Positions 2,783 through 47,724 are shown, numbered from the stretch's first letter. The stretch: DNA of 64,000 nt from an uncultured Candidatus Saccharibacteria bacterium (GCA_964429055.1 CAYSAK010000003.1:5962-69961); one strand, 5' to 3'. Numbers and translations: made by a program. The notes: generated by a model from the sequence alone, not told the origin.

Positions 2783-3469
2783 TTAATTCTTTTTAAGTAG
2801 TTTTGCAAAAATCATTTTGCCAGCGGAAGTTTCGTAGAATTTGACAAATTCGACGATAACTTCTTTCCCTACTTTGTTAGCAGCATTGTCTACTACCACC
2901 ATAGTGCCATTTGCCAAATGGCCGACGCCCTGCCCACGATTGGAACCTTTTTCAGTAATCTTAATCTTGATTTTTTCGCCTGGCAAAAATTCATTTCTTA
3001 CGGCGAGTGCGAGATCGTTGATGTTTAAGGTTTCGATTTTTTCTGCGGCAGCAACTTTGATTAAATTATAGTCTAGGGTTAGAATTGTACCGCGAGTTTC
3101 TTTGGCAATCTTCAAAAGTTCTTCGTCAACCTTTTTATGACCACTTCCGTTGTCTAGTATTTCGGTATTGATATTAATAACTCGCTCAAGTTCAGATACT
3201 ACTTCAAGTCCAGCTCTTGCGCGGTTTCTTTTGTCGGAATCTTTACCGTCGGCTAAAAGCTGTAGTTCGAGTAGCACGCTTTTTAAAATGATTAAATCGC
3301 CATCTAAAAAGCCACTTCTAGCAATGTTTAGGATCCTTCCGTCGATTAGAACTGAAGTATCAACATAAATTTTGCGTTTGCTATTAAAATTTGGTGTAAG
3401 TTTTTTGAACAACAAAATTGTTGTTTCGGCAAAAATGCCTAGTGTAATAAATAAAATAAATAATTCCAT
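2783..3469 (-). CDS. PIN/TRAM domain protein (YacL-like), membrane anchored
   Basis: 228 aa. N-terminal TM helix, PIN-like VDTSVLIDGRI...LLELQ...D core, and a C-terminal TRAM-like beta domain (GQGVGHLANGTMVVVDNA). Confidence 0.7.
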   Translation of the reverse strand: MELFILFITLGIFAETTILLFKKLTPNFNSKRKIYVDTSVLIDGRILNIARSGFLDGDLIILKSVLLELQLLADGKDSDKRNRARAGLEVVSELERVININTEILDNGSGHKKVDEELLKIAKETRGTILTLDYNLIKVAAAEKIETLNINDLALAVRNEFLPGEKIKIKITEKGSNRGQGVGHLANGTMVVVDNAANKVGKEVIVEFVKFYETSAGKMIFAKLLKKN

Positions 3470-3476
3470 GACAAGG

Positions 3477-4649
3477 TTATTTTATCAAATCTTCGCCAAA
3501 TTGCACAGCGTAGTCGTGATTTGCAGTGAGTAGATTGTTGTATTTTGCGACTAACGCGTCTTGCCCAAGTAATTCTGCCACATCGATGGCGATATTGTAG
3601 CGGGAGGCGGCATTTCTTCGAAGCATTTCAAATGGTGTAGTGGTAGAACCTTCTTCGTTGAAACCATGTACGCGCAGTCTTCGTCTTTCAGTATAATTTT
3701 CCAAAATGTTTTCTAAGGTTTCTGGATAGCCGTGGAAGTTAGCGATGATTGGTATATGCTCGTCAAACAATTCGGTAAACTTCTCAGCAGACAGTTTGTT
3801 ATCAGTTGTACCGATGGCACGATAGGACAAAGAATTAATACCAACAAAACGCATTTTGAGTTTTGGTAAATCACTTCGCAAAATTTTGATCGCTTCAATT
3901 GTTTCGTGCGTCACAATATCACCAGCTGCTGTTAGAATAATTTCTGGTTTTTCGTCGGAAATAAACTGATAAATTGAAGCTCCACCATTATCAAAAAGAT
4001 ATTTGGCGTGATGAGAGTCGATATAACGAGGGGACGGGGTTTTATTGAATGTTGTAAGATTTACAACATTCTGCGAATTAAGCATGAATTCAAAGGCCAC
4101 CTCAGCCGCTACGTCATCGACTGGAAAAATGCAGTTGGCTAAGTTTGAAGGCAGTGATAGGAGTGTAGAAATTAGAGCTGGTGATTGGTGTGTGAAACCA
4201 TTATGGTCTTGTCGCCAGCAAGTTGAGGTAGAAAGTAAATTCACAGCTGGCATTGGCTTACGCCAATTGACTGATTTCGATTGCTTAATAAATTTGATTT
4301 GCTGTAATAACTGAGACGTAATGACTGAGAAAAATGCTTCGTAGCTTCCCATCATGGCTGGTTCCCCGTTCATTAGGTGACCGGTCATAGTTGAAAACAA
4401 GACGTTTTCTGATAGCATTTCTATAATTTGACCATCCGGAGCTGATGGTAAGTCCCAAGTTTTAATTGGCAAGTCTCCCCATGCGCGTTTAGCGGTATCA
4501 AAAACCTCAGTGAATTTATTAGAGGTGGTTTCGTCTGGTGAGAAGAAATAAAAATGTTTGTCATTTTTTAATTGTTGCGCTAGAAGGCTTCCGATTTTTT
4601 CGGCTGGTGAATGGTATTCTAGACCGGGGTATTCAACTTTATCAATCAT
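3477..4649 (-). CDS. xfp: Phosphoketolase, C-terminal (PYR + C-terminal domain) subunit
   Basis: 390 aa. Aligns with the middle and C-terminal part of Xfp: FFSPDETTSNK, GSYEAFF, WRQDHNGFTHQSP, HGFNEEGSTTTPFEM. Its ATG overlaps the stop of the upstream half (ATGA at 4646-4649). Confidence 0.85.
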   Translation of the reverse strand: MIDKVEYPGLEYHSPAEKIGSLLAQQLKNDKHFYFFSPDETTSNKFTEVFDTAKRAWGDLPIKTWDLPSAPDGQIIEMLSENVLFSTMTGHLMNGEPAMMGSYEAFFSVITSQLLQQIKFIKQSKSVNWRKPMPAVNLLSTSTCWRQDHNGFTHQSPALISTLLSLPSNLANCIFPVDDVAAEVAFEFMLNSQNVVNLTTFNKTPSPRYIDSHHAKYLFDNGGASIYQFISDEKPEIILTAAGDIVTHETIEAIKILRSDLPKLKMRFVGINSLSYRAIGTTDNKLSAEKFTELFDEHIPIIANFHGYPETLENILENYTERRRLRVHGFNEEGSTTTPFEMLRRNAASRYNIAIDVAELLGQDALVAKYNNLLTANHDYAVQFGEDLIK

Positions 4650-5581
4650 AGAAGGAACCCTTTCTCTTTGTCAAATAGTTTATTAAATTCATAGGACTCT
4701 AACCATTTAGTAAGTTCTTGGAGCTCTTTGACACTGGTGGCTGGTTTCTTCAAAGGGATTTGATGAGCATCGTGGTGTAGATTTGGCCCTGTTTCGCCTT
4801 TGGCGGTTCTTAAAATATAAAATGGCGAGTCAACTTTTTTATTTAAAGCTTTTTGGAAATCTTCAGGATCGCTTCCGTAGATCCAAACTGGCGTAAAGCC
4901 AAATCCGCGAATCAGTTCGTTTAACTCTCTTTCGGATTTTCTAGCGTATAGTGATGGTGCAGAAATCTTATAACCGTTCAAATGAAGGATTGGTAATACG
5001 GTACCGTTTGCTGGACTAGCCATTAGGTTTCTTAGGTTTAAGGAATCTATGGCGGTGGCGGTTTCTAATTCCCCATCACCAATTAATACGGCTAAAGTTT
5101 TTTCTGGATGGCCAAGTGCTACGCCGTAGGCATTAGCTAGAGCATAGCCAAGTTCACCACCTTCAGTAATAACGCCTGGTGTGATTGGACTAGCGTGTGA
5201 CGGAAAGCCGTCTGGCCACGAAAAATGACGACAAATATACTTAATGCCCTCATAATTTGGTTTGGCTTTTTCGTCGATTTCAGCGAGTTTGCCGTCAATG
5301 AATAGATTTGCTTGTAAAGCCGGGAAGCCGTGCCCAGGTCCTAGGATGAAAGTGAATTCTTTTTGGTTATCAAAATAGTATTTTAGGTTCGCATAAGTGA
5401 CATTGATGCCATGGCAAGTGCCCCAATGTCCAAGTAAGCGTGGTTTAATATCGCTGTGTGATAGTCTTCGTTCAAGTAGGAAGTTATTCTGTAAGAAAAT
5501 TTGAGCGACTGATAAATAATCGCATGCCCGAATGCGTTTTCTGATTTTTTCTAAAGTGGCATAATCTACTTGCCCACTCAT
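4646..5581 (-). CDS. xfp: Phosphoketolase, N-terminal (TPP/PP domain) subunit
   Basis: Xfp N-terminal motifs GHWGTCHG, GPGHG, EGGELGYAL, GDGELET...LPILHLNGYKI. The ORF track starts at 5626 but overlaps the uvrB 3' end, so the internal ATG at 5581 (MSGQVDY) is preferred. Confidence 0.85.
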   Translation of the reverse strand: MSGQVDYATLEKIRKRIRACDYLSVAQIFLQNNFLLERRLSHSDIKPRLLGHWGTCHGINVTYANLKYYFDNQKEFTFILGPGHGFPALQANLFIDGKLAEIDEKAKPNYEGIKYICRHFSWPDGFPSHASPITPGVITEGGELGYALANAYGVALGHPEKTLAVLIGDGELETATAIDSLNLRNLMASPANGTVLPILHLNGYKISAPSLYARKSERELNELIRGFGFTPVWIYGSDPEDFQKALNKKVDSPFYILRTAKGETGPNLHHDAHQIPLKKPATSVKELQELTKWLESYEFNKLFDKEKGFLL

Positions 5582-5591
5582 TACATATTTA

Positions 5592-7559
5592 TTATAGCAT
5601 AAACTCTTTGATTTTGGCGATTTCATCGCGAAGTAAAGCAGCTTTTTCGAATTCGAGGTTGGCGGCAGCGAGTTGCATCTCGGACGACAACTGTTTTACT
5701 AGGTTTGGTAGTTCATCTTTTGGAATTTTTTTAATATTTAATTTGCTCTCAACTTCTTTTTCTGGAATAATTGCTCGAAGTCCGAGCGAAACCTCTTTTT
5801 TAATGGAGGTTGGCGTGATATTGTGCTCAGCATTGTATTGTTTTTGGATTTCGCGACGGCGATTAGTTTCGGAAATGGCTTTTTCCATACTTTCGGTGAT
5901 GAAGTTGGCGTACATGATGACTTTACCTTCTACGTGTCTAGCGGCACGACCAATTGTCTGAATGAGAGCTGATTCACTACGTAAGAACCCTTCTTTGTCC
6001 GCATCAAGGATGGCTACCAAGGATACTTCTGGAAGATCTAGGCCCTCACGAAGAAGGTTAATGCCTACTAGTACATCATAGACACCTTCGCGTAAATCTC
6101 TTAGAATATCGCTTCTTTCCAAGGTGTCTACGTCGGAATGAATGTAGGCCGTCTTAACACCGCGTTCTTTCAAATGGTCGGTTAAATCTTCTGCCATTCG
6201 TTTGGTAAGAGTCGTAATTAGCGTGCGTTGACCTTTGGCAATGCGTTTGTCAATTTCCTCCATTAAATCGTCGATTTGCCCGTCTGAACTTCGTACTTCG
6301 ACTTCTGGGTCGAGTAAACCAGTTGGGCGAATGACTTGCTCGGCTGGTTCTGGTGAGTGTTCTAATTCATATTCGCCTGGCGTGGCGGACACATAAATAG
6401 CTTGGTTCACGCGTTTTTGAAACTCGCCATAAGTTAATGGCCGGTTATCTAGTGCTGAAGGTAGTCTAAAGCCATAGTCGACTAGGGTTACTTTTCTGGC
6501 GTGGTCACCATTATACATGCCGCGAACTTGTGGTAAGGTCATGTGCGATTCATCCACGATCAAAAGGTAATCGTCTGGGAAGAAGTCGAGCAGGGTGGAA
6601 GGCGGTTCATCGGCTTTTCTTCCTTCTAGGTGTCTGGAATAGTTTTCAATTCCTTTTACAAAACCGGTGCTTTCGAGCATTTCGAGATCATATTTGGTGC
6701 GTTGGGATAATCTTTCGGCCTCTAGATATTTTTCATGTTCTTTAAAATAAGCCAATCGTTCATTAAATTCTGCGCGAATAGCATCAAGCGCTCTTTTTAG
6801 TTGATCTTTTGGCGTGGCATAATGCGTGTTTGGAAAAATGTGCACTTTTTCTGGTTTTTCGCGCGTTTCAAAAGTCAAAGGATCGACGATTTTGATTTCT
6901 TCTAGAGTATCAAATCCGAATTCAAAGCGGTAGGCAAATTCACCATTGGCTGGATACAGATCAATAGTGTCGCCCATTACGCGAAAATTGCCACGTTCAA
7001 ATGCAAGATCATTGCGGTGGTACTGAATGTTAACTAGTTTGCGAATAAAATCTAGTTGCGAAATGTTTTCGTAGCGTTTTATTTCGAAGGACATTTCTAA
7101 GTAGTTTTCTGGTGAGCCAATACCGTAGATGCAGGATACTGAGGCGACTACGATGACGTCATTTCGCGAAAGTAGGGCTTCCGTGGTGCCATGGCGCAGG
7201 CGGTCGATTTCGTCATTAATAGCAGAATCTTTTTCAATATAAGTGTCGGTTGAGGCGATGTATGCTTCTGGTTGGTAATAATCAAAATAAGATACAAAAT
7301 AATGGACTTCGTTTTCCGGGAAAAACTCTCTAAATTCGGAATATAGTTGAGCGGCTAAAGTTTTGTTGTGAGCGAGGACCAGGGTTGGTTTTTGTACATT
7401 CTTTATAATATTAGCCATAGTAAAAGTTTTACCAGAGCCAGTTACGCCAAGTAAGGTCTGTTCTTTTACACCTGCTAAAACGCCGTCCGTAAGCTGTTTG
7501 ATAGCTCTTGGTTGATCACCAGTCGGTTGGTATTTAGACACTAATTTGAATTTTGTCAT
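5592..7559 (-). CDS. uvrB: Excinuclease ABC subunit B
   Basis: 655 aa. Walker A GVTGSGKTFTMAN, DESH box (VDESHMTLPQ), helicase motifs, and a C-terminal UVR domain (LEFEKAALLRDEI). Confidence 0.97.
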   Translation of the reverse strand: MTKFKLVSKYQPTGDQPRAIKQLTDGVLAGVKEQTLLGVTGSGKTFTMANIIKNVQKPTLVLAHNKTLAAQLYSEFREFFPENEVHYFVSYFDYYQPEAYIASTDTYIEKDSAINDEIDRLRHGTTEALLSRNDVIVVASVSCIYGIGSPENYLEMSFEIKRYENISQLDFIRKLVNIQYHRNDLAFERGNFRVMGDTIDLYPANGEFAYRFEFGFDTLEEIKIVDPLTFETREKPEKVHIFPNTHYATPKDQLKRALDAIRAEFNERLAYFKEHEKYLEAERLSQRTKYDLEMLESTGFVKGIENYSRHLEGRKADEPPSTLLDFFPDDYLLIVDESHMTLPQVRGMYNGDHARKVTLVDYGFRLPSALDNRPLTYGEFQKRVNQAIYVSATPGEYELEHSPEPAEQVIRPTGLLDPEVEVRSSDGQIDDLMEEIDKRIAKGQRTLITTLTKRMAEDLTDHLKERGVKTAYIHSDVDTLERSDILRDLREGVYDVLVGINLLREGLDLPEVSLVAILDADKEGFLRSESALIQTIGRAARHVEGKVIMYANFITESMEKAISETNRRREIQKQYNAEHNITPTSIKKEVSLGLRAIIPEKEVESKLNIKKIPKDELPNLVKQLSSEMQLAAANLEFEKAALLRDEIAKIKEFML

Positions 7560-7561
7560 AT

Positions 7562-10500
7562 CTATGACCCTTCTTCGTCTTTTTTGTTCTTAGCAATGAC
7601 ATAAGAAACTGCTGCTCCAGAAGCAACTGCGGTTGCGGTAACGACGGCTAACTCAGCGGCGGATAATGATTGCGTTTCACTAACACTGAAATCATCTTCG
7701 ATGGATGTTTCATATACGCCAAGGGGTGCAGCGTAACCGTCATTAACACTGGTATCTTTAGAGATCGTTGACTTTTTACTGTCGGAGCTGCTAGGTGTAC
7801 TGAGACTTTGCTGTGGATTATTTGCCGGTGCTGGTGAAGGCGACGAAATCTGAGTGGTCATTGCCGACTTAAATGACGCAATCAATGAAGAACTAGCGTT
7901 TGGATTTTGCATATACCACGCTAAGATATCAGCATTAGTTTTTAAATATCCTAGCATGTAGACGAATTTCAAGTTATTGGAGCTACTCTTTTCCTTATAG
8001 TACCTTGTTCTATCAAATAAACCAGAGAGGTGTGTAAGTGAGTATTCTTGATATCTTTCTTCATCTGGCACACCAAGAAGACCTTCGAGAAGATATGCTA
8101 CGGTGCCAGTCCGGTCAGCGCCTACACGGCAGTGGAAGTAGATATTTTGAGGATTGTTAGCGTTAGTAACGTCCTCCATAATATCTGTCACCACATTCCA
8201 GGCTTTCATATAGTTAGAATTAGGATTATTCTCATCGCCAGAATTATAATTAAAGTTATAATGAATCACTTGGCTATACTCGTAATTTGAAAGATGCGTA
8301 TCACTTGCATATTCGTCACCAACATTGTACTCTTTGGTAATTCCAAGATTGGTTAGTTTTGTCGCAGATTCAGTACCTAGCTTCTCACCACGGAACAATT
8401 TACCATATTTAACATAAGCATCCACCGTTCCATCGCCATCCGTATCGGCTGGCAAACCACCAAGATCACGCACATTTCTGATTGTGCCGGCGTCAACCCA
8501 ACGGGTGCCATAATCCGAGTTATTAGATGTGACTGTAACATAACCATAAACCGTGTTATCGCCATCTTTCACCCATTTGTAAGTATTTCCAGGAATTAGA
8601 TTGCGAATAATACCATCAGAAGCCTCTGCATAAGACACTTGTGCACCCAGAGTTTGGTTGTTATATAAGTATACATTAAGCGGAGCACCGATTAAAGTAT
8701 CATACACATCTGGTTTTGAGCAGTCTACCGAACCATTCGCCCAGGCTGTCGGGTTTGGCGTTGTAGTTGCCGCATCACCATAACTTGGTACTTTACAATC
8801 ATTAGTCTCAAAGTTATTTTTTAAAGTGGTCCAGAATTGCGCCTCAGAAAGCTCGCTCGTATTGCCCCAAGTCGAGTTATTAATTGGCGATGCCGTATTA
8901 AAGGTCGTAATATTCACCGGGCTTTGCACCCATTGATTAATTATTGTCTTATAGCCACGCGTCGCATTATTTGATACATCGAACGGCACCGGCGTGTCCG
9001 AAGAGCTATAAGTCCAATGTGCAGTTAGAACTACATTACCGGTTGGAATATACTGTGTACCATCGCTAACCAAAGTATTCCCATCATACCATCCAGCAAA
9101 GGTATAATTAGCGCTCGGTGCAGTCGGAGTCGGTAAAGCACCTACTGGATCACCAATTGTAATGGTGTAATTACTTTGGGCGTTGGCTGGCAATTCCCCG
9201 CCATCAACTTCAAGATCTACTGTATATTCAGTCGGAGCACCAAGTTTAACATACATGTCAGTTATTTTAGCAATTGACTGCCTTTGTGGAGTCTTATTAG
9301 ATTTAGCCGATGCGCCAAACCAAACTGTATGATCAAAGTTTTGCGCTGTCAAGCTATTGGTATCCTGAAGGGTTATCAAATTGCCACCATTAATACTATA
9401 CTTGATTACTCCGCTTTGTCTAACAACTACAACTCGCTTCACTGATGATGCGAGAATCGAGTGATCAGAAGCTTTCGTCCCGTTCATACTATGCGTAAAC
9501 TCAATATAATTCGTTTCATCATATCTACGTACAGCCAGACCTGGCCAGTTCGTTCCATTTTCGTACTTGTCCTGCATCATCGTCATCTGTCTAATACTGT
9601 CAAAATCAAAGTCTACAATTGTAAAGCCAATTTCATAGTCACTGTTATAGTTCGCAGCCGTATAAAGCGATACACCAGTATCTATATAAGTTTTAGTTTT
9701 ATCAATAGAAGTATTATTAACTTCGTCTTTCAAACAATAGTCACCAGTAATCGCTGAAGTCCCATTAAACTGACAAGCGTTAATTTCGGCAAATACAATT
9801 GGGAAGCTGCTAATATCTTCTACCCACCTTGCATAATAAGTCACATTATTATTTACGACCGTCGACGGATCAACTTCTTCATAGAAAGTCCCATCATCCG
9901 TGTACCAACCGAAGAACCTGTAATTTGTCTTAGAAGCAGTCGGGAGAGATCCTACTGCACTACCACTATCTACATCTCTAGTGCTGGAAGCATTATTGTC
10001 TAAAGTGCCACCATTAGTATTAAATGTTACTCTATACTGCACCACCACTGCTGGTGTTACCTCGACCTCAATCGTCTTGGTTAGATTAGATTGTGAACCA
10101 GTCATAATAATATTTACAGTACCAGCATTTACACCAGTTACGACACCGGTCGAAGCGTCTACGGTCGCAATCGATGTATCGTTAGAACTGAAAGTGTAAG
10201 ACTCTAATGCAGATGAATTAGATATACCAATCGTAACACTTTCGCCAGCTGGAACAGTTAAATCATTATCGGCAATCACTGCCTGAGTCACATCCAACTT
10301 CCATTCTGCATATACGGTCATATTGCCAGTTGGTTCGGTCGCGCTCGTTACGGTGTTACCGGTAGCAGAATCATACCACCTTTGGAATACATGATTTGCC
10401 CAAGTAGGATTATTGACTGGCATTTGTCCACCAATTGTATTACCAACCAGTACATCAGCATAAGATGTGTTCTCGCCATTCTGCGGGTCAAAAGTTATGC

Positions 10501-13500
10501 GATAAACCGAGGAAGGATCCACTACGTTTACAGTTATGATATTGCTATTTGTAGCATGGGAATCCGTACCAGTAATCGAGATGTAAGCTGTGCCTTCGGC
10601 TACACCAGTTACCACGCCAGTCGAAGAATCAACTGTAGCTATACTGGTGTTACTTGATGAGAATGTAAAGGTTTCAAGGTCAGTTGCATTTGCTACCGAA
10701 GCGGTGGTGTTACCACCCTCTACCACCGTAAGGGTATTATTGGAAACTTGAGCAAGTGCTACTGTACCTTTCCATTGAGCATAATAAGTTGTATCGCCAC
10801 TTGGCACTGTTGTACTAGAAATTTGAGTTCCACCAGAAGACGCAGTGTACCAACCTTGGAAAATATGATCGGTATAGGTTGGATCAGTCTGTGGGTAAGC
10901 TGTATTTAACTCACTACCAGGAGTGATTGTTTCCGTAAAGGTCGCTGTTCCGTTTTGGCGATCAAAAGTGATCACATAATTTGCCGGCGGCACAAAGTAT
11001 TTTTCAAGGTATGCTTCAGGAAATACGATTGTCGCACGTGGCGCATTCGCAGAAGTATTACCATGCGTTAAGCCACGACTCCTCGTCTGAATCCGGTTAT
11101 TATAATTAGTCTGTTTTTCGAGCCAAATACCATCGGTAATCGTGGTGTTTGCAAAGGCTGATTTTTCAAACAAGTATAAACTTGACCCATCGGTAGGAGT
11201 TAGACCAGCATTAGTGCCACCCCAAAGACCGTTGGTAATTTCAGGATAGGTCATGAATCGAGCCGCCTTGCCAGCGTAATCACCATCTGAATAAGTCACT
11301 AGGTGTGGGTTATCCCAAACCGGAGTTGAAGGACTCTGTGGGTCTAGCACAGCATTCGGAAGATAAGTGAGTGCATTGTTGTAAGATTGACTTATATTTG
11401 TTAAGTTAGCATAATGGACTAATTTTGCATTTCCATTTTCCATACCGAAATAATAAAATCTTTCAGTCTCAGCATCATATATCCCATCATAGTCTACATC
11501 ACAATCATAAGCAGCACCAGGTTTCAAAGTCAGAGAATTTACTAGATATCCATAGGTAATATTTTGTGAAGCCGAAAAACCTGTGCTACGACAACCGCCA
11601 CCACTGCTGTCAGTAGTTTGCAAACATTGCTCAACATGAAGTTCTTCTGCAGTCCTACAAACAAAGTCGCCAGGAAGCCAATGGGCATGGTATTCAATAG
11701 AAGCCGTAATTTGTGTTGAAGTGTCTAATTTGGTGCCGGTGCCATTAGGCCCAGTATACCAACCTTCTAACACATACCCAGATCTTTCCGTATAAGGGAT
11801 CTCGGTAAGTGTTGCACCACCCCCCACCGAAAGATCACTCACGCTATAACCGCCAGCCGCATCAAACGAAACCGTATAGGAGCTACCAGTTACGGTCACC
11901 TCAATCGTTTGCGTAGTGCTGGACCTTGTGCCCGTCATTGTGATAATAGCAGTACCGGCCGCTACACCAGTTACAAGTCCAGTGGATGGATCAACTGAGG
12001 CAATGGAACTATTATTCGAACTAAATGTATATGGCTCGAGCTCAGCCGAGTTAGTGACAATAATGCTTTCTGTGTCACCTGTATTTATATTAATTGTCGA
12101 ATTTGTAATTTGCGCCAATGTAACTGTTTTTGTCCAATGCGCAGTATACGTTTCGTCAGAATCTGGCACCGTAGCTGCATTTACTAATTGGTTGCTTTCG
12201 TCATACCACCCATCAAATAGCCAATTTGTCCTAGCCGGGGTTTCTAGATTGTTGCCAATCGCATCGCCATCCACTATTAACATAGATGAACCACCCGCTA
12301 GCGTACCACCATTCACATCTAAAGTAATTTCATGCAAGTTTGATTCATCAAAATCACCTAACCTAATATACATATTACTTAATTCACCTTCAAGAATCCG
12401 CTTCCCTGCTGTACAACCTTCGGAACAATTCACATTGTCCGGGTAAGCTCCAAACCAAGCACTAAGTCCAAATTGTTGATTAAACGAAGTATAATCTTGA
12501 AGTTCAATCAACGGGCCATTATCTATGCTTGAATAAATTACGCCGTTGATTCTAAAGATTCGAATGTCAGTGCCAGCGAAAGCGTTAGTCCCAGATTTTG
12601 ATACAATTCTAGCACCATCAGTCGTGGTGGGCGCACCATAGGTCGATTTGATTTCGATCCCGCTACCATTCCGACGAATCACTAAGCCTGGCGATTTACC
12701 ACCCCACGGACTAGCGGTCACGCTAGACGACAATTTATCATTGAAGATAGTCGACTGAGATTCCGGTTGTTCAGTTGGTATATAGCGGTCGACTGTAAAA
12801 TGCACTTCGTAATCTTTGTTATAATTTGACGCACTATAAAGTGCTACTCCAGTATCAATGAATTTATAACTTGAATAATCAGAACATTCTGAACCAGAAA
12901 GATATCCATTATTTGTGTCTTCTGCTCCATCAAATATACATTTTCCCATCTGGCTCCAAACTATCGGGAATGGATCGGTTAGCCAAATTGCGTAAAGTGT
13001 AATATTGGTGCCATCCACGGTCTGATCAATCGGGTAATCGTCACCAGGCTGGTAAATTGTACCTGAGCATTCATCATTACCAGTATTAGAATTATAGGTA
13101 GTTGCGACCGTGCACCAACCACCAAACGATCTTACTGCTGTAGCGTTCATTACTGGTACGGCATTACTGAGTGCGGCATGAGAATCAGCGGCTGGCGTAC
13201 CGCCGTCAATATTTAATGCTTGTGGATTTGGCGAAGGCATACTTGTTACGGTTTCGTTAGTATTATCGTCATAGGTGATGTTATAGACGATTGAATTAGC
13301 CACTGCCATTAAGACGTAAGTATGAGTGTAGGTGTCGGCCGGCAAGCTCATGTCAATTCTGGCGCCGAAGGCAATGGTGTAAGTGTCGGCTACGTTATTT
13401 GCGGCGGTAGTAACTGCCAAAAGACTACCAGTGGTTGGCGCAATTGGTAAGAAGTTTGAATTCTGGATGGTAGTGTTGATGTTGTTACTGGTTGTGACAT

Positions 13501-13906
13501 ATTGACTTGGTTTATATCCCCATTGATTATTGTAGATGCTATTATTTGTGAAAGTTGTTTCGTCAATAGCTGTACTTATAGACGTAATTTCGTCGTCGTT
13601 TCCATTAACTAAACTCGTAGAATTCTCAGCTGCGATAATCAAACTATAGCCAGTGAAATTATCGGTCGTGACACTAATGGTGTTGTTTGCAGTTTTACCA
13701 AAAGTACCACTAGAAGAAGGAAGAATATTGATGCTGAGTAGTGGGGCGCTGTCGCTAATGGTCAAGGTGCTTTGTTTGGCAATTGCACCTGCAGAAGGAG
13801 TGTTGTGAGCGCAAAAAACAATTGTTATAAACGTGCATAGTAGTGCATACAAAATACCTTTATGTTGCACCTGTGAAATACAGTCTACTTGTCTTTTGTT
13901 TTTCAT
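7562..13906 (-). CDS. Giant (2114 aa) multidomain cell-surface protein with a C-terminal tyrosine-phosphatase domain and C-terminal TM anchor
   Basis: N-terminal signal/TM segment. Several Listeria-Bacteroides (Flg_new)-type repeats (YxVTFxxNGG...F.GWY....TLYA.W pattern). Three Big_2-like modules (TFSSN.[ST]SIA[ST]VD.STG.VTGV..GT). Two LamG/ConA-like modules (DYE[VI].FT... / MY[IV][RK]LG). A PTP domain (NVRDLGG ... HCRVGADRTG), a Ser/Pro linker, and a hydrophobic C-terminal helix followed by KNKKDEEGS. Confidence 0.85.
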   Translation of the reverse strand: MKNKRQVDCISQVQHKGILYALLCTFITIVFCAHNTPSAGAIAKQSTLTISDSAPLLSINILPSSSGTFGKTANNTISVTTDNFTGYSLIIAAENSTSLVNGNDDEITSISTAIDETTFTNNSIYNNQWGYKPSQYVTTSNNINTTIQNSNFLPIAPTTGSLLAVTTAANNVADTYTIAFGARIDMSLPADTYTHTYVLMAVANSIVYNITYDDNTNETVTSMPSPNPQALNIDGGTPAADSHAALSNAVPVMNATAVRSFGGWCTVATTYNSNTGNDECSGTIYQPGDDYPIDQTVDGTNITLYAIWLTDPFPIVWSQMGKCIFDGAEDTNNGYLSGSECSDYSSYKFIDTGVALYSASNYNKDYEVHFTVDRYIPTEQPESQSTIFNDKLSSSVTASPWGGKSPGLVIRRNGSGIEIKSTYGAPTTTDGARIVSKSGTNAFAGTDIRIFRINGVIYSSIDNGPLIELQDYTSFNQQFGLSAWFGAYPDNVNCSEGCTAGKRILEGELSNMYIRLGDFDESNLHEITLDVNGGTLAGGSSMLIVDGDAIGNNLETPARTNWLFDGWYDESNQLVNAATVPDSDETYTAHWTKTVTLAQITNSTININTGDTESIIVTNSAELEPYTFSSNNSSIASVDPSTGLVTGVAAGTAIITMTGTRSSTTQTIEVTVTGSSYTVSFDAAGGYSVSDLSVGGGATLTEIPYTERSGYVLEGWYTGPNGTGTKLDTSTQITASIEYHAHWLPGDFVCRTAEELHVEQCLQTTDSSGGGCRSTGFSASQNITYGYLVNSLTLKPGAAYDCDVDYDGIYDAETERFYYFGMENGNAKLVHYANLTNISQSYNNALTYLPNAVLDPQSPSTPVWDNPHLVTYSDGDYAGKAARFMTYPEITNGLWGGTNAGLTPTDGSSLYLFEKSAFANTTITDGIWLEKQTNYNNRIQTRSRGLTHGNTSANAPRATIVFPEAYLEKYFVPPANYVITFDRQNGTATFTETITPGSELNTAYPQTDPTYTDHIFQGWYTASSGGTQISSTTVPSGDTTYYAQWKGTVALAQVSNNTLTVVEGGNTTASVANATDLETFTFSSSNTSIATVDSSTGVVTGVAEGTAYISITGTDSHATNSNIITVNVVDPSSVYRITFDPQNGENTSYADVLVGNTIGGQMPVNNPTWANHVFQRWYDSATGNTVTSATEPTGNMTVYAEWKLDVTQAVIADNDLTVPAGESVTIGISNSSALESYTFSSNDTSIATVDASTGVVTGVNAGTVNIIMTGSQSNLTKTIEVEVTPAVVVQYRVTFNTNGGTLDNNASSTRDVDSGSAVGSLPTASKTNYRFFGWYTDDGTFYEEVDPSTVVNNNVTYYARWVEDISSFPIVFAEINACQFNGTSAITGDYCLKDEVNNTSIDKTKTYIDTGVSLYTAANYNSDYEIGFTIVDFDFDSIRQMTMMQDKYENGTNWPGLAVRRYDETNYIEFTHSMNGTKASDHSILASSVKRVVVVRQSGVIKYSINGGNLITLQDTNSLTAQNFDHTVWFGASAKSNKTPQRQSIAKITDMYVKLGAPTEYTVDLEVDGGELPANAQSNYTITIGDPVGALPTPTAPSANYTFAGWYDGNTLVSDGTQYIPTGNVVLTAHWTYSSSDTPVPFDVSNNATRGYKTIINQWVQSPVNITTFNTASPINNSTWGNTSELSEAQFWTTLKNNFETNDCKVPSYGDAATTTPNPTAWANGSVDCSKPDVYDTLIGAPLNVYLYNNQTLGAQVSYAEASDGIIRNLIPGNTYKWVKDGDNTVYGYVTVTSNNSDYGTRWVDAGTIRNVRDLGGLPADTDGDGTVDAYVKYGKLFRGEKLGTESATKLTNLGITKEYNVGDEYASDTHLSNYEYSQVIHYNFNYNSGDENNPNSNYMKAWNVVTDIMEDVTNANNPQNIYFHCRVGADRTGTVAYLLEGLLGVPDEERYQEYSLTHLSGLFDRTRYYKEKSSSNNLKFVYMLGYLKTNADILAWYMQNPNASSSLIASFKSAMTTQISSPSPAPANNPQQSLSTPSSSDSKKSTISKDTSVNDGYAAPLGVYETSIEDDFSVSETQSLSAAELAVVTATAVASGAAVSYVIAKNKKDEEGS
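7890..8490 (-). other. Protein tyrosine phosphatase domain (Y_phosphatase3-like) inside the giant surface protein
   Basis: The NxRDLGG entry motif (IRNVRDLGGLP) lies 116 aa upstream of the CX5R P-loop FHCRVGADRTGT. The P-loop is encoded at 8105-8134 (revcomp cac tgc cgt gta ggc gct gac cgg act ggc). Confidence 0.75.
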
Positions 13907-14007
13907 TAACTCTCACTCTATGTTTGTATATATAACCATTATAAGTTTATTTATCCTATTGTGCAAGTGTTTATTTTCTTAAAAATATGGTAAAAAATGT
14001 AAAAAAA

Positions 14008-14036
14008 TTGACATTTTAGCATAAGTGTGATATAAT
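14008..14036 (+). promoter_or_regulatory. Sigma70-type promoter (TTGACA-N17-TATAAT) giving a leaderless mRNA for the DUF167 gene
   Basis: TTGACA at 14008-14013, 17-nt spacer, TATAAT at 14031-14036. The ATG at 14043 is 6 nt after the -10 box and there is no SD. Confidence 0.6.
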
Positions 14037-14042
14037 AAATAT

Positions 14043-14261
14043 ATGGCAAAATATCTTGTTTTAGTTAAACCGGGTTCTTCTCAAGAAAAAATCGTCAAAA
14101 CAGGGGAATTTGAACTGATGGTTTATCTTCGGGCAAAAGCTCACGATGGTGAAGCTAATACTGCTCTAATTAAGTTGCTTTCCAAATATTTTGACGTGCC
14201 AAAAACTTCTCTTCATATAACCCAAGGTTTAAAATCTCGGCACAAAACTATAGAATTTTAG
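14043..14261 (+). CDS. DUF167 (YggU) family protein
   Basis: 72 aa. Pattern V.PGSS...I......L.V.L.A.A.DGEAN.ALI..LS..F.V.K.....T.G..SR.K.I is typical of the YggU family. The 3' end overlaps lysS by 4 nt (convergent). Confidence 0.7.
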   Translation: MAKYLVLVKPGSSQEKIVKTGEFELMVYLRAKAHDGEANTALIKLLSKYFDVPKTSLHITQGLKSRHKTIEF

Positions 14262-20929: not shown

Positions 20930-23728
20930 ATGAAAATCAAAGTGCACTATCGGAGTAGGGTCAGCTCTGTGGGCTTAAAACTAAATAAAGTCGGTGTAAG
21001 TTCGCTTGCGCTTTTAATTATCGGGTTAGTTGCAGGAGGCCTGGGGATTAAATATTCTTCGGAATTATCTAAAGAAGAGTCTGTTTTTGCGTTGCATCAT
21101 GAATGTAACCAATATGCTACCACTATAAATGATGCTGTTTGTATGCAGGATATGAATGATTCAGTAGCTGGAACTATGGTGGCTGGACGCCAATACCAAC
21201 TATATGATAAAAGAGACGATAAATTATATTACATTGCCAAATTAGCTGATGGAAATGTGTGGATGACACAAAACCTTGATCTAGATTTGAATAAGAATGT
21301 TAAGTTGACCCCAGCGGATTCTGACGTTGTTGCCGATTGGACTCCGGCAGAATCGACAATCGTGTCTGAATGCATAGACGAAGATGAGAATGGAACGTGT
21401 GAAGACTTGGACTTGGCATTTGATGAAGTTGGCACTAAAAATACCACGCCAGAATCATATGACGTAGGTGATTTATATTGGAACGGGATTGTTGGAGATT
21501 GCGATACATGTACACAATATCAGACTTATATCACGAGTGATTCTAGTAATACTCATTATCATTTAGGTAATTTTTACAACTGGAGTGCTGCTACAGCGAA
21601 CAATGATTCAAGTGCGCTTGTGGCTGGTGGTGAAGTGGAACAATCGATTTGTCCTGCTGGGTGGTCTTTGCCAACCGCTCTTGAGTTACCAGAGACTAAC
21701 AGAAGAGCAAGAGATTATATGACTCTTCTTAGTTATTATGCTACTGAAGACGCTTTTGACGAGTTCCCTTTAGTTGGATTCTCGGTTGAGGAGGACTTTA
21801 ATTCGGCGCCATATAGTAGTCCGCTATATTTTGGGTATTTTCGTGAACCTGGATATTATGGTGGATATTGGTCAAGTTTATATGAACGATCTAATGATGA
21901 AAGAACTCCATATCTTGCAACTGATTTAGAAATATCAGTAGAAGAAGAAGGTTATATCGGCATATCTAGTTTCATTGAGAGAAAGATGATCTTAAACGTT
22001 AGATGTGTCGCAAAATCGCGTGAAGCTGTGCCGGAACCACACGCAGAGCCAGTCGAACAAGTAGTTTCGTTTGGTGCGTCGTCCGTTAGTAAGACTTATG
22101 GTGATGCCAAGTTCACTAACGTTGCTTCCACTACTGGCGATGGGGCGATTACCTATTCGTCTAGCAACGCCTCGGTTGCCACAATAAATAGCACTTCTGG
22201 CGAAGTCACTATTGTTGGTGTTGGTTCGGCTACTATTACTGCTAGTGCTGCTGCCACGGATAATTATTTAGCTAGTTCAGCAACATACACATTGACTGTT
22301 AGTAAAGCAAATAGAACCGTTTCGTTTGGTGCGTCGTCCGTTAGTAAGACTTATGGTGGTGCTAAGTTCACCAACGTTGCAACTAGGACTGGCGATGGCA
22401 CGATAGCCTATTCATCTAGTAACACTTCAGTTGCGTCAATTGATAGTGCCTCTGGTGAAGTAACTATCATTGGCGCTGGTTCAGCCATTATCACTGCAAG
22501 TGTAGCTGCTACTTCAAATTACAATGCCGGCTCAGCAACATACACATTGACTGTGAGTAAAGCAAATAGAACCATATCATTTGGGAGTAGCGCAATAACG
22601 AAGACCTATGGTGATGCTAAGTTTACCAATGTTGCAACTAAGACTGGAGACGGAACAATTACTTATTCATCTAGTAACGCCTCGGTTGCCGAAGTGGCTG
22701 CTAATGGTGAAGTGACTATCAAGGCCGCTGGTTCGGCTACTATTACTGCAAGCGTAGCTGCTACTTCAAACTATAATGCTGGCTCTGCTTTTTATACGCT
22801 TACTGTGAATAAAGCAAATAGAAGAGTTTCATTTGGAGGGAGCGAAGTGGTTAAAGTATACGGTGATGATAAGTTTACTAATGTTGCAACTAAGACTGGC
22901 GATGGTGTAATTGTCTATTCCTCTAGCGATGGGTCAGTCGCTATGGTAGATAGTTCTACTGGTGAGATAACTATTAATAGTGCTGGTTCGGCTACTATTA
23001 CTGCAAGCGTAGCTGCTACTTCAAACTACAATGCTGGTTCAGCAACATACGTATTGACTGTGAATAAGAAAGAATCTGTAAAACCTGAGGAAGTATCTGA
23101 AGTCAAAGAAGGTTACGTTACTGATAAACTATCCACTATTGAACTTGAGACCAAAGGTTTGGTTTGGGATGATGAAAACGAACAAATTGAAGAAGGTAAA
23201 AATAGCTACGTCGTAAACTACACGGAAAACGCGGATAGCGCTAACTATACTACCGAGTCATTCGAAATTGAAGTCGATGGAAAGCACAGAAAATATGAAG
23301 TAGTAGAAGGTGACAAACAAACTTACATTCTAGGTAGTGAAGAATATATGAGTTTCACGTTTGATGCAGATTACACTCTATTTGAAGAAGGTGGTGAAGT
23401 CTACATCAATGAAGATCTACTCGATGAAGAAGATTATGTTTCTGAATCCGGTAGCACCGTGATTAAAGTAGCCGATGAATACCTAAATACTTTAGATGAA
23501 GGTAAATATACTTTGGCAGTGTACTTTAATGATGGTGGTATTGCTACTACTTCCTTCACGCTCGAAGAACCGGAAGTGGCAGTACCAGATACCGGTGCTC
23601 ATACGAAGTCAAACGACAAAACTACTTCCGTTGGAGCCTATATCCTGCCATTCTCAGCGTTTGTCTTATTCTCCGTGTTTAGCGTCATCGCTAGAAAAAA
23701 GCAAAAAGTTTGTTTTGACAGAAAATAG
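20930..23728 (+). CDS. Surface protein: FISUMP-like domain, four Ig-like tandem repeats, and a VPDTG sorting signal
   Basis: 932 aa. N-terminal TM/signal. Fibrobacter-succinogenes-major-paralogous-like motifs (GNVWMTQNLDLD, NFYNWSAA, CPAGWSLPT). Four 84-85-aa repeats (SFG.S...KTYGDAKFTNVA..TGDG.I.YSSSN.SVA...GEVTI...GSATITASVAATSNYNAGSATYTLTV.KANR). C-terminal VPDTG, then a hydrophobic helix, then RKKQK. Confidence 0.8.
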   Translation: MKIKVHYRSRVSSVGLKLNKVGVSSLALLIIGLVAGGLGIKYSSELSKEESVFALHHECNQYATTINDAVCMQDMNDSVAGTMVAGRQYQLYDKRDDKLYYIAKLADGNVWMTQNLDLDLNKNVKLTPADSDVVADWTPAESTIVSECIDEDENGTCEDLDLAFDEVGTKNTTPESYDVGDLYWNGIVGDCDTCTQYQTYITSDSSNTHYHLGNFYNWSAATANNDSSALVAGGEVEQSICPAGWSLPTALELPETNRRARDYMTLLSYYATEDAFDEFPLVGFSVEEDFNSAPYSSPLYFGYFREPGYYGGYWSSLYERSNDERTPYLATDLEISVEEEGYIGISSFIERKMILNVRCVAKSREAVPEPHAEPVEQVVSFGASSVSKTYGDAKFTNVASTTGDGAITYSSSNASVATINSTSGEVTIVGVGSATITASAAATDNYLASSATYTLTVSKANRTVSFGASSVSKTYGGAKFTNVATRTGDGTIAYSSSNTSVASIDSASGEVTIIGAGSAIITASVAATSNYNAGSATYTLTVSKANRTISFGSSAITKTYGDAKFTNVATKTGDGTITYSSSNASVAEVAANGEVTIKAAGSATITASVAATSNYNAGSAFYTLTVNKANRRVSFGGSEVVKVYGDDKFTNVATKTGDGVIVYSSSDGSVAMVDSSTGEITINSAGSATITASVAATSNYNAGSATYVLTVNKKESVKPEEVSEVKEGYVTDKLSTIELETKGLVWDDENEQIEEGKNSYVVNYTENADSANYTTESFEIEVDGKHRKYEVVEGDKQTYILGSEEYMSFTFDADYTLFEEGGEVYINEDLLDEEDYVSESGSTVIKVADEYLNTLDEGKYTLAVYFNDGGIATTSFTLEEPEVAVPDTGAHTKSNDKTTSVGAYILPFSAFVLFSVFSVIARKKQKVCFDRK
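22064..23080 (+). repeat. Four in-frame tandem repeats of 255/255/252/255 nt
   Basis: Units start at 22064, 22319, 22574 and 22826. The first 40 nt of units 1 and 2 are identical (gtttcgtttggtgcgtcgtccgttagtaagacttatggtg). Confidence 0.9.
23582..23596 (+). other. Sortase-type sorting motif VPDTG
   Basis: gta cca gat acc ggt is in frame. It is followed by ~15 polar residues, a hydrophobic helix (VGAYILPFSAFVLFSVFSVIA) and an RKKQK tail. Confidence 0.65.
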
Positions 23729-23733
23729 CATAT

Positions 23734-23847
23734 AACAAAAAAATATCTTCACGGAGGCTGCGTCCGGCCGTACGAAAGCCACGGGCGGCCGGCGCTCGTC
23801 CTCCGATGGACGCGCTCCGGAGGCCTCCTTTGAAGATATTATTTGTT
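23734..23847. repeat. GC-rich palindromic element, intergenic copy (114 nt)
   Basis: Arms AACAAAAAAATATCTTCA / TGAAGATATTATTTGTT. Core GCGTCCGGCCG...GCCACGGGCGGCCGGCGCTCGTCCTC...CGCGCTCCGGAGG. Shares 19 identical nt with the trmD copy and 13 with the uvrC copy. Lies between the convergent 932-aa gene and tsf. Confidence 0.85.
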
Positions 23848-45237: not shown

Positions 45238-45475
45238 AACTAGCCTAAAAAAGAAAGGAGTTTCCTCGACCATGAAAAAGACCAAACACAAAAAAACGAC
45301 GAGGGTTAGAAAAACTACCTATCGTTATAAATTAAGTAAGCCAGTGCGGGCTCTGTTTACATTTGAAGCGGTAGCTATTCTTGCTTCAATCGTGGTACTT
45401 ACGATTGTGGCGCTAGGGCCAAATGGTAGTGTGGATATTCCAAGCGATGTAAGTTATGTTAAGGAGGACCAATGA
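45230..45475 (+). CDS. Small basic single-pass membrane protein
   Basis: 81 aa. Lys/Arg/Thr-rich N-terminus and one TM helix. Overlaps both neighbours (8 nt and 4 nt), which suggests translational coupling. Confidence 0.45.
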   Translation: MNKTSLKKKGVSSTMKKTKHKKTTRVRKTTYRYKLSKPVRALFTFEAVAILASIVVLTIVALGPNGSVDIPSDVSYVKEDQ

Positions 45476-46704
45476 TGAACGTTCTCACCACCTTTGCCGC
45501 TGATGTCTGTAAGTGTATAGATACTAGTATGTTTGGTAGAGTCTGTAGTACTGGTAATGGTAATGAAATCTACTATGTTCTCAATATAGTCATTAATGTA
45601 TTAACGGCTGGTATTGGTATTTTAGCGGTCATTGGTATAACCTACTTTGGTGTCCAATATCTCACTGCTAAAGACGACCCAGCTCAAGTTAAAAAGGCTA
45701 AATCTAGACTCATGGCTATTATTATCGGTCTAGCAGCTTATGCCACTATTTATGCTGGTTTGTACTTCTTATTGCCAAACTTCACAGCTGAATCTGGTTC
45801 TTTTGACACCTGTACAGAAGCAAGTCAAGGAGATTCACATCCGGTTTCACCAGATAAACCCGATACGCCAGATACTCCGGACACGCCAGACACTCCAGAT
45901 GTACCAGACACGCCAGATCCAGGTGAGGATGAAGATGATCCAGAAGCATGTAGCTTGAACTTGAGTGTTGTAGAAAACAATGCAAGAGCCGAAATTGCCT
46001 CGACTTCGCCAGTGTTTGTCTTGGCCGATACTAAGACTTCAACAGGTAAAGGTCTTTGCGAAAAACCGACCAGTAAAGCTAATAAAATTGCTAATACTGC
46101 AGTAATGATGGCTTGGCCATATTCTGATTCGTCTACCGATGGTAATAAAGTTGGGAAGTGTGTCAATGGTAATGGTAGCTTGATTAGTTATGGCACGACT
46201 CAAGCAAAATGTAATACCAAGAAAAACTATAACAAAAGTACTTGTTGTGCGAACTCGTTGAAACCACAGAACATTACAGTCCTGACCGCCAATGGTATTA
46301 AATCTAGTAGACAACTTGGCTGGGCCAAAGACTGTGCTAAATTTGTTGGTGCTGCCGTTAAGTATGCTGGAGTTGATCCGGATTTTCCAACCTATTATAC
46401 TGGTAATTTAGATAGCTATCTTTCTAAGCAAGCTAAGAAGAGTAATGGCAAATGGGAACAAATTGAGAATAAAGGGAGCACAAGAGGTCTTGAACCGGGA
46501 GATGTGTTTGTCTATCCATCAAAAACTATTAATGGTACTAAGGTTTACGGGCATACGATGATTTTTGTGGGAAGTAAAGGATATAAAAGTTTTAATATGA
46601 CAGAAGCTTCGCTTAATAAGCGTGTGGCAAGAACTACCTCTGCAACCTTTAAGCTAACTTATAACGGAAAGAAAGTTAATTATCATATATATAGGATTAA
46701 ATGA
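45472..46704 (+). CDS. VirB2/TrbC-like (CPR T4SS-pilin-type) two-helix N-module + PDT-repeat linker + papain-fold (NlpC/P60/CHAP-like) hydrolase domain
   Basis: 410 aa. N-module IYYVLNIVINVLTAGIGILAVIGITYFGVQYLTAKDDPAQVKKAKSRLMAIIIGLAAY. Linker PDKPDTPDTPDTPDTPDVPDTPDP. C-terminal Cys...His pattern KDCAKFVGAAV ... GDVFVY......GHTMIFVG....TEAS. SD AAGGAGG. Confidence 0.6.
   Translation: MMNVLTTFAADVCKCIDTSMFGRVCSTGNGNEIYYVLNIVINVLTAGIGILAVIGITYFGVQYLTAKDDPAQVKKAKSRLMAIIIGLAAYATIYAGLYFLLPNFTAESGSFDTCTEASQGDSHPVSPDKPDTPDTPDTPDTPDVPDTPDPGEDEDDPEACSLNLSVVENNARAEIASTSPVFVLADTKTSTGKGLCEKPTSKANKIANTAVMMAWPYSDSSTDGNKVGKCVNGNGSLISYGTTQAKCNTKKNYNKSTCCANSLKPQNITVLTANGIKSSRQLGWAKDCAKFVGAAVKYAGVDPDFPTYYTGNLDSYLSKQAKKSNGKWEQIENKGSTRGLEPGDVFVYPSKTINGTKVYGHTMIFVGSKGYKSFNMTEASLNKRVARTTSATFKLTYNGKKVNYHIYRIK
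45478..45800 (+). repeat. Conserved N-module DNA, copy 1 (paralogous to 47731-48050)
   Basis: By eye about nine of ten positions are identical with copy 2 over >200 nt (for example gaaatctactatgttctcaatatagtcat in both). Differences are mostly at third codon positions. Confidence 0.85.
45851..45921 (+). repeat. In-frame 9-nt (Pro-Asp-Thr) tandem repeat
   Basis: cca gat aaa ccc gat acg cca gat act ccg gac acg cca gac act cca gat gta cca gac acg cca gat cca. Confidence 0.85.
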
Positions 46705-47723: not shown

Positions 47724-47724
47724 T

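Follow-up and report, generated by a model that had tools for sequence, protein, structure and literature searches.

A giant gene in a 64,000-nucleotide stretch of DNA from an uncultured Candidatus Saccharibacteria bacterium (GCA_964429055.1, CAYSAK010000003.1:5962-69961; hereafter the window, with positions counted from its first letter) encodes a predicted exported protein that, as shown by structure modelling, ends in a structurally sound cysteine phosphatase with intact catalytic residues. The open reading frame (ORF; 7562..13906, minus strand) is uninterrupted, codes for 2114 amino acids and fills 9.9% of the window, in line with a first-pass annotation made from the sequence alone, which had put it at about 10% and had read the product as a surface protein with a terminal tyrosine-phosphatase domain. 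The comparative result outweighs the single gene: the same C-terminal cassette closes hundreds of giant secreted proteins of herbivore-gut bacteria in at least two phyla.

The phosphatase was recognized at several levels. In a Pfam scan, residues 1808-1967 matched Y_phosphatase3 (PF13350) with 57.5 bits against a gathering cut-off of 22.2. An AlphaFold2 (AF2) model, built from an alignment of residues 1640-2020 with 44 homologues, reached a predicted local distance difference test score (pLDDT) of 90.1 and a predicted template modelling score (pTM) of 0.92, and formed a single compact unit of two helices, a beta-sandwich and an alpha/beta phosphatase core. Foldseek comparison with the PDB returned the Clostridioides difficile protein tyrosine phosphatase (PTP) 8DHI at the top (E value 1e-9) and Mycobacterium tuberculosis PtpB 1YWF next (7e-7); further matches were to dual-specificity phosphatases (DUSPs), Siw14 and TpbA, all of these with probabilities of about 1.0, 8DHI and 1YWF included. 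A sequence profile also found 8DHI (2.6e-19) and PtpB (4.6e-11) in the PDB, whereas the single sequence matched 8DHI only weakly (E value 0.012), so a profile was needed. Alignment of 45 homologues showed N1811, R1813, G1816-G1817, Y1834, R1839 and H1925-C1926-x2-G-x-D1931-R1932-x-G to be invariant. The pattern HCxxGxDRTG was present in all 76 relatives, with the catalytic Cys, the Arg and the P-loop Asp unchanged throughout. With a CX5R P-loop carrying Cys and Arg on an alpha-beta fold of the PTP/dual-specificity type, the domain belongs to the Cys-based PTP superfamily. The phosphatase claim of the first-pass annotation is thus borne out by the profile match, the model, the Foldseek matches to PTPs and the conserved catalytic residues, and the three motifs it had reported (NVRDLGG, HCRVGADRTG and DTDGDGTVD) all lie exactly where it had placed them. 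The last of these, described as a calcium-binding-like insert, does follow the entry motif as a pattern, but a comparable insert was found in only 25 of the 76 relatives; judged from the alignment it is a subfamily feature and not a general one.

MptpB-like 'atypical lipid phosphatases' (ALPs) are defined by the signature HCXXGKDR[TA]G (Beresford et al. 2010, PMC3091653). Their P-loop Asp is essential to catalysis, their Lys supports phosphoinositide binding, and they have no WPD loop (PMC3091653). The window protein shares with them the P-loop Asp before the Arg and the absence of a WPD loop, but it departs from the signature at the strict Lys. Across all 76 relatives the P-loop reads HC[R/T/K/...][V/I/...]G[A/T/S]DRTG, with Ala, Thr or Ser at the Lys position (Ala in the window protein), and Arg often stands directly after the catalytic Cys. 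As far as aligned sequences tell, the protein is a Y_phosphatase3 member outside the ALP signature, in a distinct Lys-less subfamily. The loop after strand VIHYNF, a potential site of a second acid, is variable in the family, and a conserved WPD-like Asp is missing. This is no objection to activity, because MptpB-type enzymes use the P-loop Asp and work without a WPD loop (PMC3091653). The first-pass annotation had named structure prediction of the fold and the general-acid loop as a check; the fold was confirmed, and the loop is not expected in an MptpB-type enzyme, whose P-loop Asp is invariant here.

Domain borders were taken from segment-against-self searches (phmmer with segments). The gene and its parts are as follows, with the basis of each assignment in brackets.

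7562..13906, minus strand: whole gene, a secreted or surface multidomain protein of 2114 residues (intact ORF and orthologues)
13938..13965, minus strand: promoter-like site TGCACA-16-TATAAT, lying upstream (found only by a consensus scan and by reading the sequence; not functional evidence)
13784..13906, minus strand: predicted signal peptide, residues 1-41 (hydropathy; recurring motif in orthologues)
13202..13783, minus strand: N-terminal domain, residues 42-235 (restricted to Saccharibacteria orthologues)
12992..13198, minus strand: degenerate seventh Flg_new-like repeat, residues 237-305 (Flg_new match in 8 of 27 orthologous segments, best E value 1.2e-7)
12332..12994, minus strand: module A, weakly LamG/ConA-like, residues 305-525 (paralogy to module B)
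11684..12331, minus strand: residues 526-741, with Flg_new 526-587, Big_2 591-665 and Flg_new 679-741 (Pfam and self-search)
10982..11674, minus strand: central Cys-containing domain, residues 745-975 (profile search)
9830..10975, minus strand: Flg_new 978-1043, Big_2 1045-1120, Flg_new 1135-1200, Big_2 1202-1276 and Flg_new 1291-1359 (Pfam and self-search)
9239..9835, minus strand: module B, residues 1358-1556 (paralogue of module A)
9032..9226, minus strand: Flg_new repeat 6, residues 1561-1625 (self-search)
8507..8989, minus strand: pre-domain, residues 1640-1800 (AF2 secondary structure; conservation across phyla)
7862..8506, minus strand: MptpB-type (Pfam Y_phosphatase3) cysteine phosphatase domain, residues 1801-2015 (Pfam, AF2, Foldseek and profile against the PDB)
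8456..8476, minus strand: entry motif NVRDLGG, residues 1811-1817 (N, R and GG invariant)
8420..8446, minus strand: DTDGDGTVD, a DxDxDG-type calcium-loop-like insert, residues 1821-1829 (sequence pattern only)
8105..8134, minus strand: P-loop HCRVGADRTG, residues 1925-1934 (Cys1926 at 8129-8131, Asp1931 at 8114-8116, Arg1932 at 8111-8113)
7661..7861, minus strand: Ser/Pro-rich linker of 67 residues, 2016-2082 (contains GYAAPLGVYE, 7709-7738)
7565..7660, minus strand: transmembrane (TM) helix, residues 2083-2105, and tail KNKKDEEGS, residues 2106-2114 (hydropathy)

The phosphatase is always preceded by the pre-domain, which is conserved across phyla and consists of two helices, in which a pair of Cys residues (C1704, C1729) is conserved, followed by an FN3-like beta-sandwich with the motif N-x-I-P-G-x-T-Y-x-W. 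Weak matches to Pur_ac_phosph_N, the N-terminal domain of purple acid phosphatases (E value 5e-4), and to fn3 (0.078) appeared in single members, and a sequence search of the PDB with the pre-domain was empty. Helical hairpin, FN3-like sandwich and MptpB-type phosphatase form the cassette, the last 375 structured residues of the protein. When 1.84 billion cluster representatives were searched exhaustively, the cassette profile matched 2565 of them at E<=1e-30; among the best 150, most were 1000-3300 residues long and carried the cassette at the extreme C-terminus. A genome scan with the C-terminal module yielded 80 loci, about 50 of them in metagenome-assembled genomes (MAGs) of Candidatus Saccharibacteria or Nanosyncoccus. 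At least 45 of the 80 were explicitly ruminant (sheep, goat, buffalo, yak, roe deer or rumen), a bias that may partly stem from the narrow peptide pattern used in the scan. The remaining loci belonged to low-GC (25-33%) Bacilli, Erysipelotrichaceae or 'Tenericutes' MAGs, and three to MAGs binned as Muribaculaceae. The giants of these remaining loci are 1500-3200 residues long, with a signal peptide, 6-14 Flg_new repeats, homologues of the central domain and, in two of the four scanned, Big_2. As this design is also found in low-GC Bacilli of the same habitat, the link to an epibiotic lifestyle drawn by the first-pass annotation is weakened, and the combination of arm and phosphatase is probably not specific to epibionts. 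Text searches of the literature gave no paper on Saccharibacteria phosphatases or on this architecture. Exported MptpB-type phosphatases were already known; new are the Lys-less subfamily, the obligatory pre-domain and the terminal placement on giant surface proteins of herbivore-gut bacteria from two phyla.

Hydropathy of the N-terminus (MKNKRQ...) showed a basic stretch, a hydrophobic core of 17 residues (17-35) and the site AGA followed by IAKQSTLTIS, so that a signal peptide would be cleaved between AGA and IA. A motif past the hydrophobic core, [AG][IV]A[KR][QE]ST[LI][ST], recurs in the Saccharibacteria orthologues. The n-h-c structure of the proposed signal segment and its retention in orthologues agree with the first-pass annotation, as do the Ser/Pro stalk, the lone C-terminal helix and the short charged tail. 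Because the putative signal peptide is followed by about 2000 residues of Flg_new, Big_2 and other Ig-type modules, and the TM helix by the positive KNKK, all modules including the phosphatase would be extracellular, the placement that had been proposed before.

How the phosphatase is held at the cell surface varies within the family. Linker and C-terminal TM helix are present in 32 of the 44 Saccharibacteria orthologues; the other 12 lack the helix, and all but one of these end directly past the phosphatase. Among the helix-less orthologues is L006, the one whose neighbouring genes are most similar to those of the window. The complete Bacilli homologues examined also stop directly past the phosphatase, with no C-terminal anchor. 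Going by these sequences, the membrane anchor is optional in the family. The earlier view of a phosphatase close to its own membrane, at the base of the arm, therefore describes this gene, with its linker of about 67 residues, and not a conserved design.

Anchored versions carry a (G)Y..PLGV(x)E motif 15-30 residues before the TM helix, seen in 31 relatives (residues 2057-2066 in the window protein; 7709-7738, minus strand). Among the remaining ORFs of the window and of the loci it was absent, it matched no NCBIfam sorting-signal model, and we rejected a general sorting signal, the motif being confined to this family. An LPXTG-type sortase substrate was also rejected: PLGV lies about 18 residues before the helix, and the tail KNKKDEEGS is mixed. 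The motif might be a site of cleavage and release (shedding).

The arm, of about 1600 residues, consists of immunoglobulin (Ig)-like spacers (Flg_new, Big_2) and putative binding modules. The repeat types named by the first-pass annotation were recovered as six Flg_new (E value 1.4e-53) and three Big_2 stretches (2.8e-17) in the Pfam scan, with one degenerate Flg_new copy besides; the NCBIfam scan added the List_Bact_rpt repeat only. The N-terminal domain (42-235) had no Pfam or PDB match, and a protein-database search returned three fragment homologues only; if anchoring is C-terminal, this domain would be the distal tip. Modules A and B are paralogous (E value 8.6e-22, phmmer segment search). 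Their reading as two LamG-like modules holds for the paralogy, but the LamG label is weak: among 27 family members, sub-threshold matches occurred to Laminin_G_1 in two (best E value 3e-4), Laminin_G_2 in two (1.3e-3) and Laminin_G_3 in one (0.012), module A of the window had no Laminin_G match, and a PDB sequence search with the modules found nothing.

The central domain (745-975) had no Pfam or PDB sequence match, and its AF2 model (pLDDT 70) had no Foldseek match at E<1. A profile search returned 397 matches (best E value 1e-67), many with PF07963 N_methyl; many of these homologues are Bacilli proteins of 330-460 residues with a type IV pilin N-terminus. The domain, which the first-pass annotation had listed as Cys-containing and unassigned, is thus real and conserved but not wholly unassignable, being homologous to the head of Bacilli type IV pilins. 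In pairwise comparison with the pilin L082:2440-3537 (E value 5e-18), the alignment ends where the variable region (VR) of the pilin starts. In that locus the VR (3399-3505) is the last 107 nucleotides of the upstream pilin gene and matches an intergenic template repeat (TR, 3721-3827) at 91%, with 10 of 10 mismatches on TR adenines; genes for bAvd (4419-4745) and a reverse transcriptase (4729-5853) follow. Because all VR/TR mismatches fall on TR adenines, beside bAvd and a reverse transcriptase, this is a diversity-generating retroelement (DGR) of Bacilli. Locus L081 is arranged alike, and in L082 a pilin paralogue, P0181, lies directly downstream and is not diversified. A DGR acting on the giant gene itself was rejected, since searches of the window and of all 80 loci found no TR/VR pair and no reverse transcriptase close to the giant gene; they occurred only beside the pilin homologues of L081 and L082. 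Homology to a pilin head scaffold diversified by a retroelement suggests that the central domain is a putative ligand-binding module, and its sequence patterns appear to resemble DUF1566 and C-type-lectin DGR scaffolds.

Orthologues of 1860-2360 residues with the same domain order, a comparison that the first-pass annotation had proposed, are present in about 44 ruminant-gut Saccharibacteria genomes. Identity to the giant protein is roughly 30-85% by segment, and the pattern is mosaic, with the closest relative differing between segments. The phosphatase is 49-83% identical across the Saccharibacteria orthologues L001-L044, versus about 30-70% for most arm segments; with the pre-domain it is among the best-kept segments, at 75-85% in the closest relatives (L001-L005). 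Such divergence and mosaicism look typical of exposed surface proteins.

In the Bacilli, a recurrent gene cluster lies upstream of the giant genes (for example L073:1105-3436, L054:4975-5529 and L051:2359-2943). Of 25 loci, 13 have a signal peptidase I of the archaeal, SipW-like type (TIGR02228, 2.9e-20), 11 and 9, respectively, have members of two families of small proteins (about 185 residues), and 10 have a 550-residue Big_2 protein; one locus encodes a protein with a SipW-dependent-type signal. The sequence '...[AGS]IY[KR]...' after the hydrophobic core is common to some Bacilli giants and the small proteins. These findings hint at a dedicated export or fibre-assembly system, and it is speculation that the Bacilli giants are processed by the SipW-type peptidase or joined to a TasA-like fibre. 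Near the Saccharibacteria giant genes, neither a SipW-type peptidase nor small partner proteins were found.

We propose, with a probability of about 0.5, that the giant surface protein carries a targeted extracellular phosphomonoesterase at work in the anoxic gut. After Sec export, the cassette would here be tethered to the cell by the Ser/Pro linker and the single C-terminal helix. The arm would bring the enzyme to its target, a polymer or the surface of a cell, in the way that carbohydrate-binding modules (CBMs) guide glycosidases, and the cassette would hydrolyse phosphomonoesters outside the cell, with Cys1926 as nucleophile, Arg1932 binding phosphate and Asp1931 as P-loop acid. The benefit would be release of phosphate or nutrients, or surface remodelling. 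The rumen and gut lumen are strongly reducing, which would keep the catalytic Cys active. Activity outside the cell is plausible because of this setting and because the relatives MptpB, LipA and Pho16B are exported (PMC3091653, PMC6409689). As to the substrate, four points weakly favour a non-protein phosphoester, soluble or attached to a polymer, over phosphotyrosine; inositol phosphates (for example phytate) or phosphorylated glycans would fit. The points are the loss of the lipid-binding Lys, the Arg often following the Cys, the family's apparent confinement to herbivore guts, and the activity of Pho16B as a phytase; the caution in the first-pass annotation that the substrate need not be phosphotyrosine was reasonable. 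Several observations weigh against the proposal. The choice of inositol phosphates or phospho-glycans is based on habitat and P-loop composition, and the ruminant bias may, as noted, owe something to the scan pattern. The Pfam scan of the giant protein found no PTPlike_phytase match at E<=0.1. The loop in which MptpB-like enzymes might hold a second acid is variable. With weak LamG matches and a moderate central-domain model lacking a structural match, the 'binding modules' of the arm are presumptive.

Other readings of the same protein were ranked, in descending order, as an enzyme for host-surface phospho-targets, a non-catalytic module, a delivered effector and a cytoplasmic phosphatase. 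That the tethered enzyme takes phosphate off phosphoproteins, or off other phosphorylated molecules, at the surface of the bacterium that hosts the epibiont, modulating attachment or host responses, is possible but rather unlikely. The organism is a Saccharibacterium, the enzyme appears extracellular on an adhesin-like arm, MptpB-type enzymes act on phosphotyrosine and phosphoserine/threonine peptides besides lipids (PMC3091653), and a mosaic, fast-evolving arm would suit partner recognition. However, the same arm and cassette occur in low-GC Bacilli that are not known epibionts, the membrane-proximal position is not conserved, and phosphoprotein substrates outside the cell on bacterial surfaces are not established. 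More doubtful is a broader picture in which the giants are contact-dependent enzymatic arms of reduced-genome gut bacteria (Saccharibacteria and small low-GC Bacilli), exported in Bacilli by the SipW-type signal peptidase operon, maybe on a TasA-like fibre, with the phosphatase acting on a partner or host envelope (phosphorylated wall glycopolymers, lipid-linked phosphomonoesters) for nutrients or attachment; if true, bacteria would have a new class of enzyme for modifying the surfaces of other bacteria.

Cys, Arg and P-loop Asp do not vary among the 76 relatives, whereas pseudophosphatases normally lose Cys or Arg. This makes it improbable that the PTP fold serves as a lectin-like receptor that binds phospho-ligands without catalysis, even though the general-acid-type loop after VIHYNF is variable, the ALP Lys is absent and the module sits in an adhesin-like protein. 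A shade less probable still is a polymorphic-toxin-like effector, cleaved near PLGV or before the pre-domain and entering a target cell. An enzymatic domain at the extreme C-terminus of giant secreted proteins would fit such a role, MptpB and LipA are secreted virulence factors (PMC3091653), and there were weak matches to polymorphic-toxin DSP-PTPase families (Tc-R-P, E value 0.098; precomputed PF22784/PF22785 on P0061). Yet the Tc-R-P match is far under the cut-off, no translocation or pretoxin domain was detected, and no immunity-like gene follows the ORF, uvrB starting 2 nucleotides past the stop; moreover, the C-terminal domain is constant instead of polymorphic, and all syntenic orthologues end in the same cassette. 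Topology was read from the sequence, which leaves room for a cytoplasmic phosphatase whose N-terminal segment is no export signal and whose C-terminal helix is the sole membrane pass. We consider this very improbable: it would put Flg_new, Big_2 and pilin-head-type modules, about 2000 residues in all, inside the cell, the N-terminus has a conserved Sec-type n-h-c structure, the KNKK tail fits the positive-inside rule, and the relatives from Bacilli show clear signal peptides but lack a C-terminal helix.

The proposed extracellular phosphomonoesterase can be set beside several known systems. With the ALPs MptpB and LipA (Lmo1800) (1YWF, 8DHI) it shares fold and family, the NxRDxGG entry motif, a P-loop with Cys, Asp-Arg and T-G, the lack of a WPD loop, and export. 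Unlike them, the present family has Ala, Thr or Ser in place of the P-loop Lys, and whereas ALPs are free proteins of about 30 kDa, the enzyme here is fused behind a helical and FN3-like module at the end of a surface protein of about 2000 residues; neither of the two mycobacterial insertions would be expected in it. Pho16B, a Y_phosphatase3 protein of MptpB type from a soil metagenome, has a signal peptide and phytase activity on inositol hexakisphosphate (InsP6) (PMC6409689). It is likewise exported, with a documented non-protein substrate, but it is a 38-kDa single-domain enzyme that keeps HCXXGKDR (PMC6409689). The giants resemble by analogy the multimodular surface enzymes of the gut, with spacer arrays of Big_2 and Flg_new, putative binding modules and one terminal catalytic domain, which here is a phosphatase and not a glycosidase, and no recognized CBM families are present. 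Selenomonas ruminantium PhyA, a PTP-like phytase of rumen anaerobes, is reportedly an extracellular Cys phosphatase with the P-loop HCEAGVGRT. Such phytases, too, are Cys-based and work outside the cell in the anoxic rumen, but they belong to a different Pfam family and have a different P-loop. The central domain is homologous to the head of the DGR pilins of L081 and L082, but it lies inside a giant protein and no local retroelement diversifies it.

Saccharibacteria live on other bacteria, and the molecules at this interface are little known. A phosphatase that is exposed and apparently active, carried by a conserved giant surface protein, offers a concrete candidate for an interface enzyme, although the occurrence in Bacilli of this large, uncharacterized cassette family lowers its epibiont-specific appeal. 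Should the cassette prove to be a phytase or phospho-glycan phosphatase, rumen phosphorus turnover would gain a new, cell-tethered player; should it act on the envelopes of partner cells, it would represent a new type of interbacterial enzyme.

The giant gene lies among housekeeping genes. These code for PBP1, a PIN-TRAM protein, phosphoketolase, UvrB, GreA, two class II aminoacyl-tRNA synthetases (aaRS), one of them of the Lys/Asn/Asp type, and two proteases, one CPBP and one M50. Its G+C content is in line with the remaining window (0.40-0.44). As in the window, uvrB adjoins the giant gene in eight relative loci, with a Lys-type aaRS gene nearby in seven of these and greA in six. Housekeeping neighbours are 77-93% identical between the relative loci (Candidatus Saccharibacteria MAGs) and the window. 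On the strength of these shared uvrB/aaRS/greA neighbours at 77-93% identity, we assign the window to a ruminant-gut Saccharibacterium (Nanosyncoccus-like) and the giant gene to a chromosomal, vertically kept locus. By sequence reading only, GAGTGAGAG is a ribosome-binding-like stretch 5' of the ATG of the giant gene. The seeming gap upstream is occupied by a divergent 72-residue ORF (MAKYLVLVKPGSS...) at 14043-14261 (plus strand), whose product looks by eye like a DUF167/YggU-type protein and which is preceded by a promoter-like site at 14008-14036 (plus strand), a perfect TTGACA-17-TATAAT with extended TG.

The phosphoketolase is encoded by two ORFs of the minus strand, 3477-4649 and 4646-5626, with a 4-nucleotide overlap: XFP_N (326 residues), then XFP and XFP_C (390 residues). 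The relatives L009 and L043 have the identical pair of ORFs with its 4-nucleotide overlap, so the split is a conserved trait of the gene and does not come from faulty assembly. Of the XFP_N profile, about 115 positions have no counterpart in it.

Other surface proteins may be encoded in the window. A 161-residue protein (51016-51501, minus strand) combines an N-terminal signal with MPNTG, a hydrophobic helix and KRGL at its C-terminus; this sortase-type sorting signal suggests that other surface proteins of the organism are anchored by sortase. A 932-residue ORF (20930-23728, plus strand), with a signal peptide, a C-terminal TM helix with basic tail and tandem repeats of about 255 nucleotides at 22064-23080 (67-80% identity), probably encodes another repeat-containing surface protein. 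A GC-rich 64-nucleotide repeat (73% identity) occupies intergenic or terminal positions at 23756-23819 and 54498-54561, the rest of the window having 42% GC. The plus-strand ORFs 45472-46704 and 47707-49620 are probably paralogues; their starts share a 300-nucleotide direct repeat (45505-45804 and 47755-48054, 84% identity). The second of them also contains a run of 12-nucleotide repeats (CCTGAGCCTGAA; Pro-Glu if in frame) at 48088-48201.

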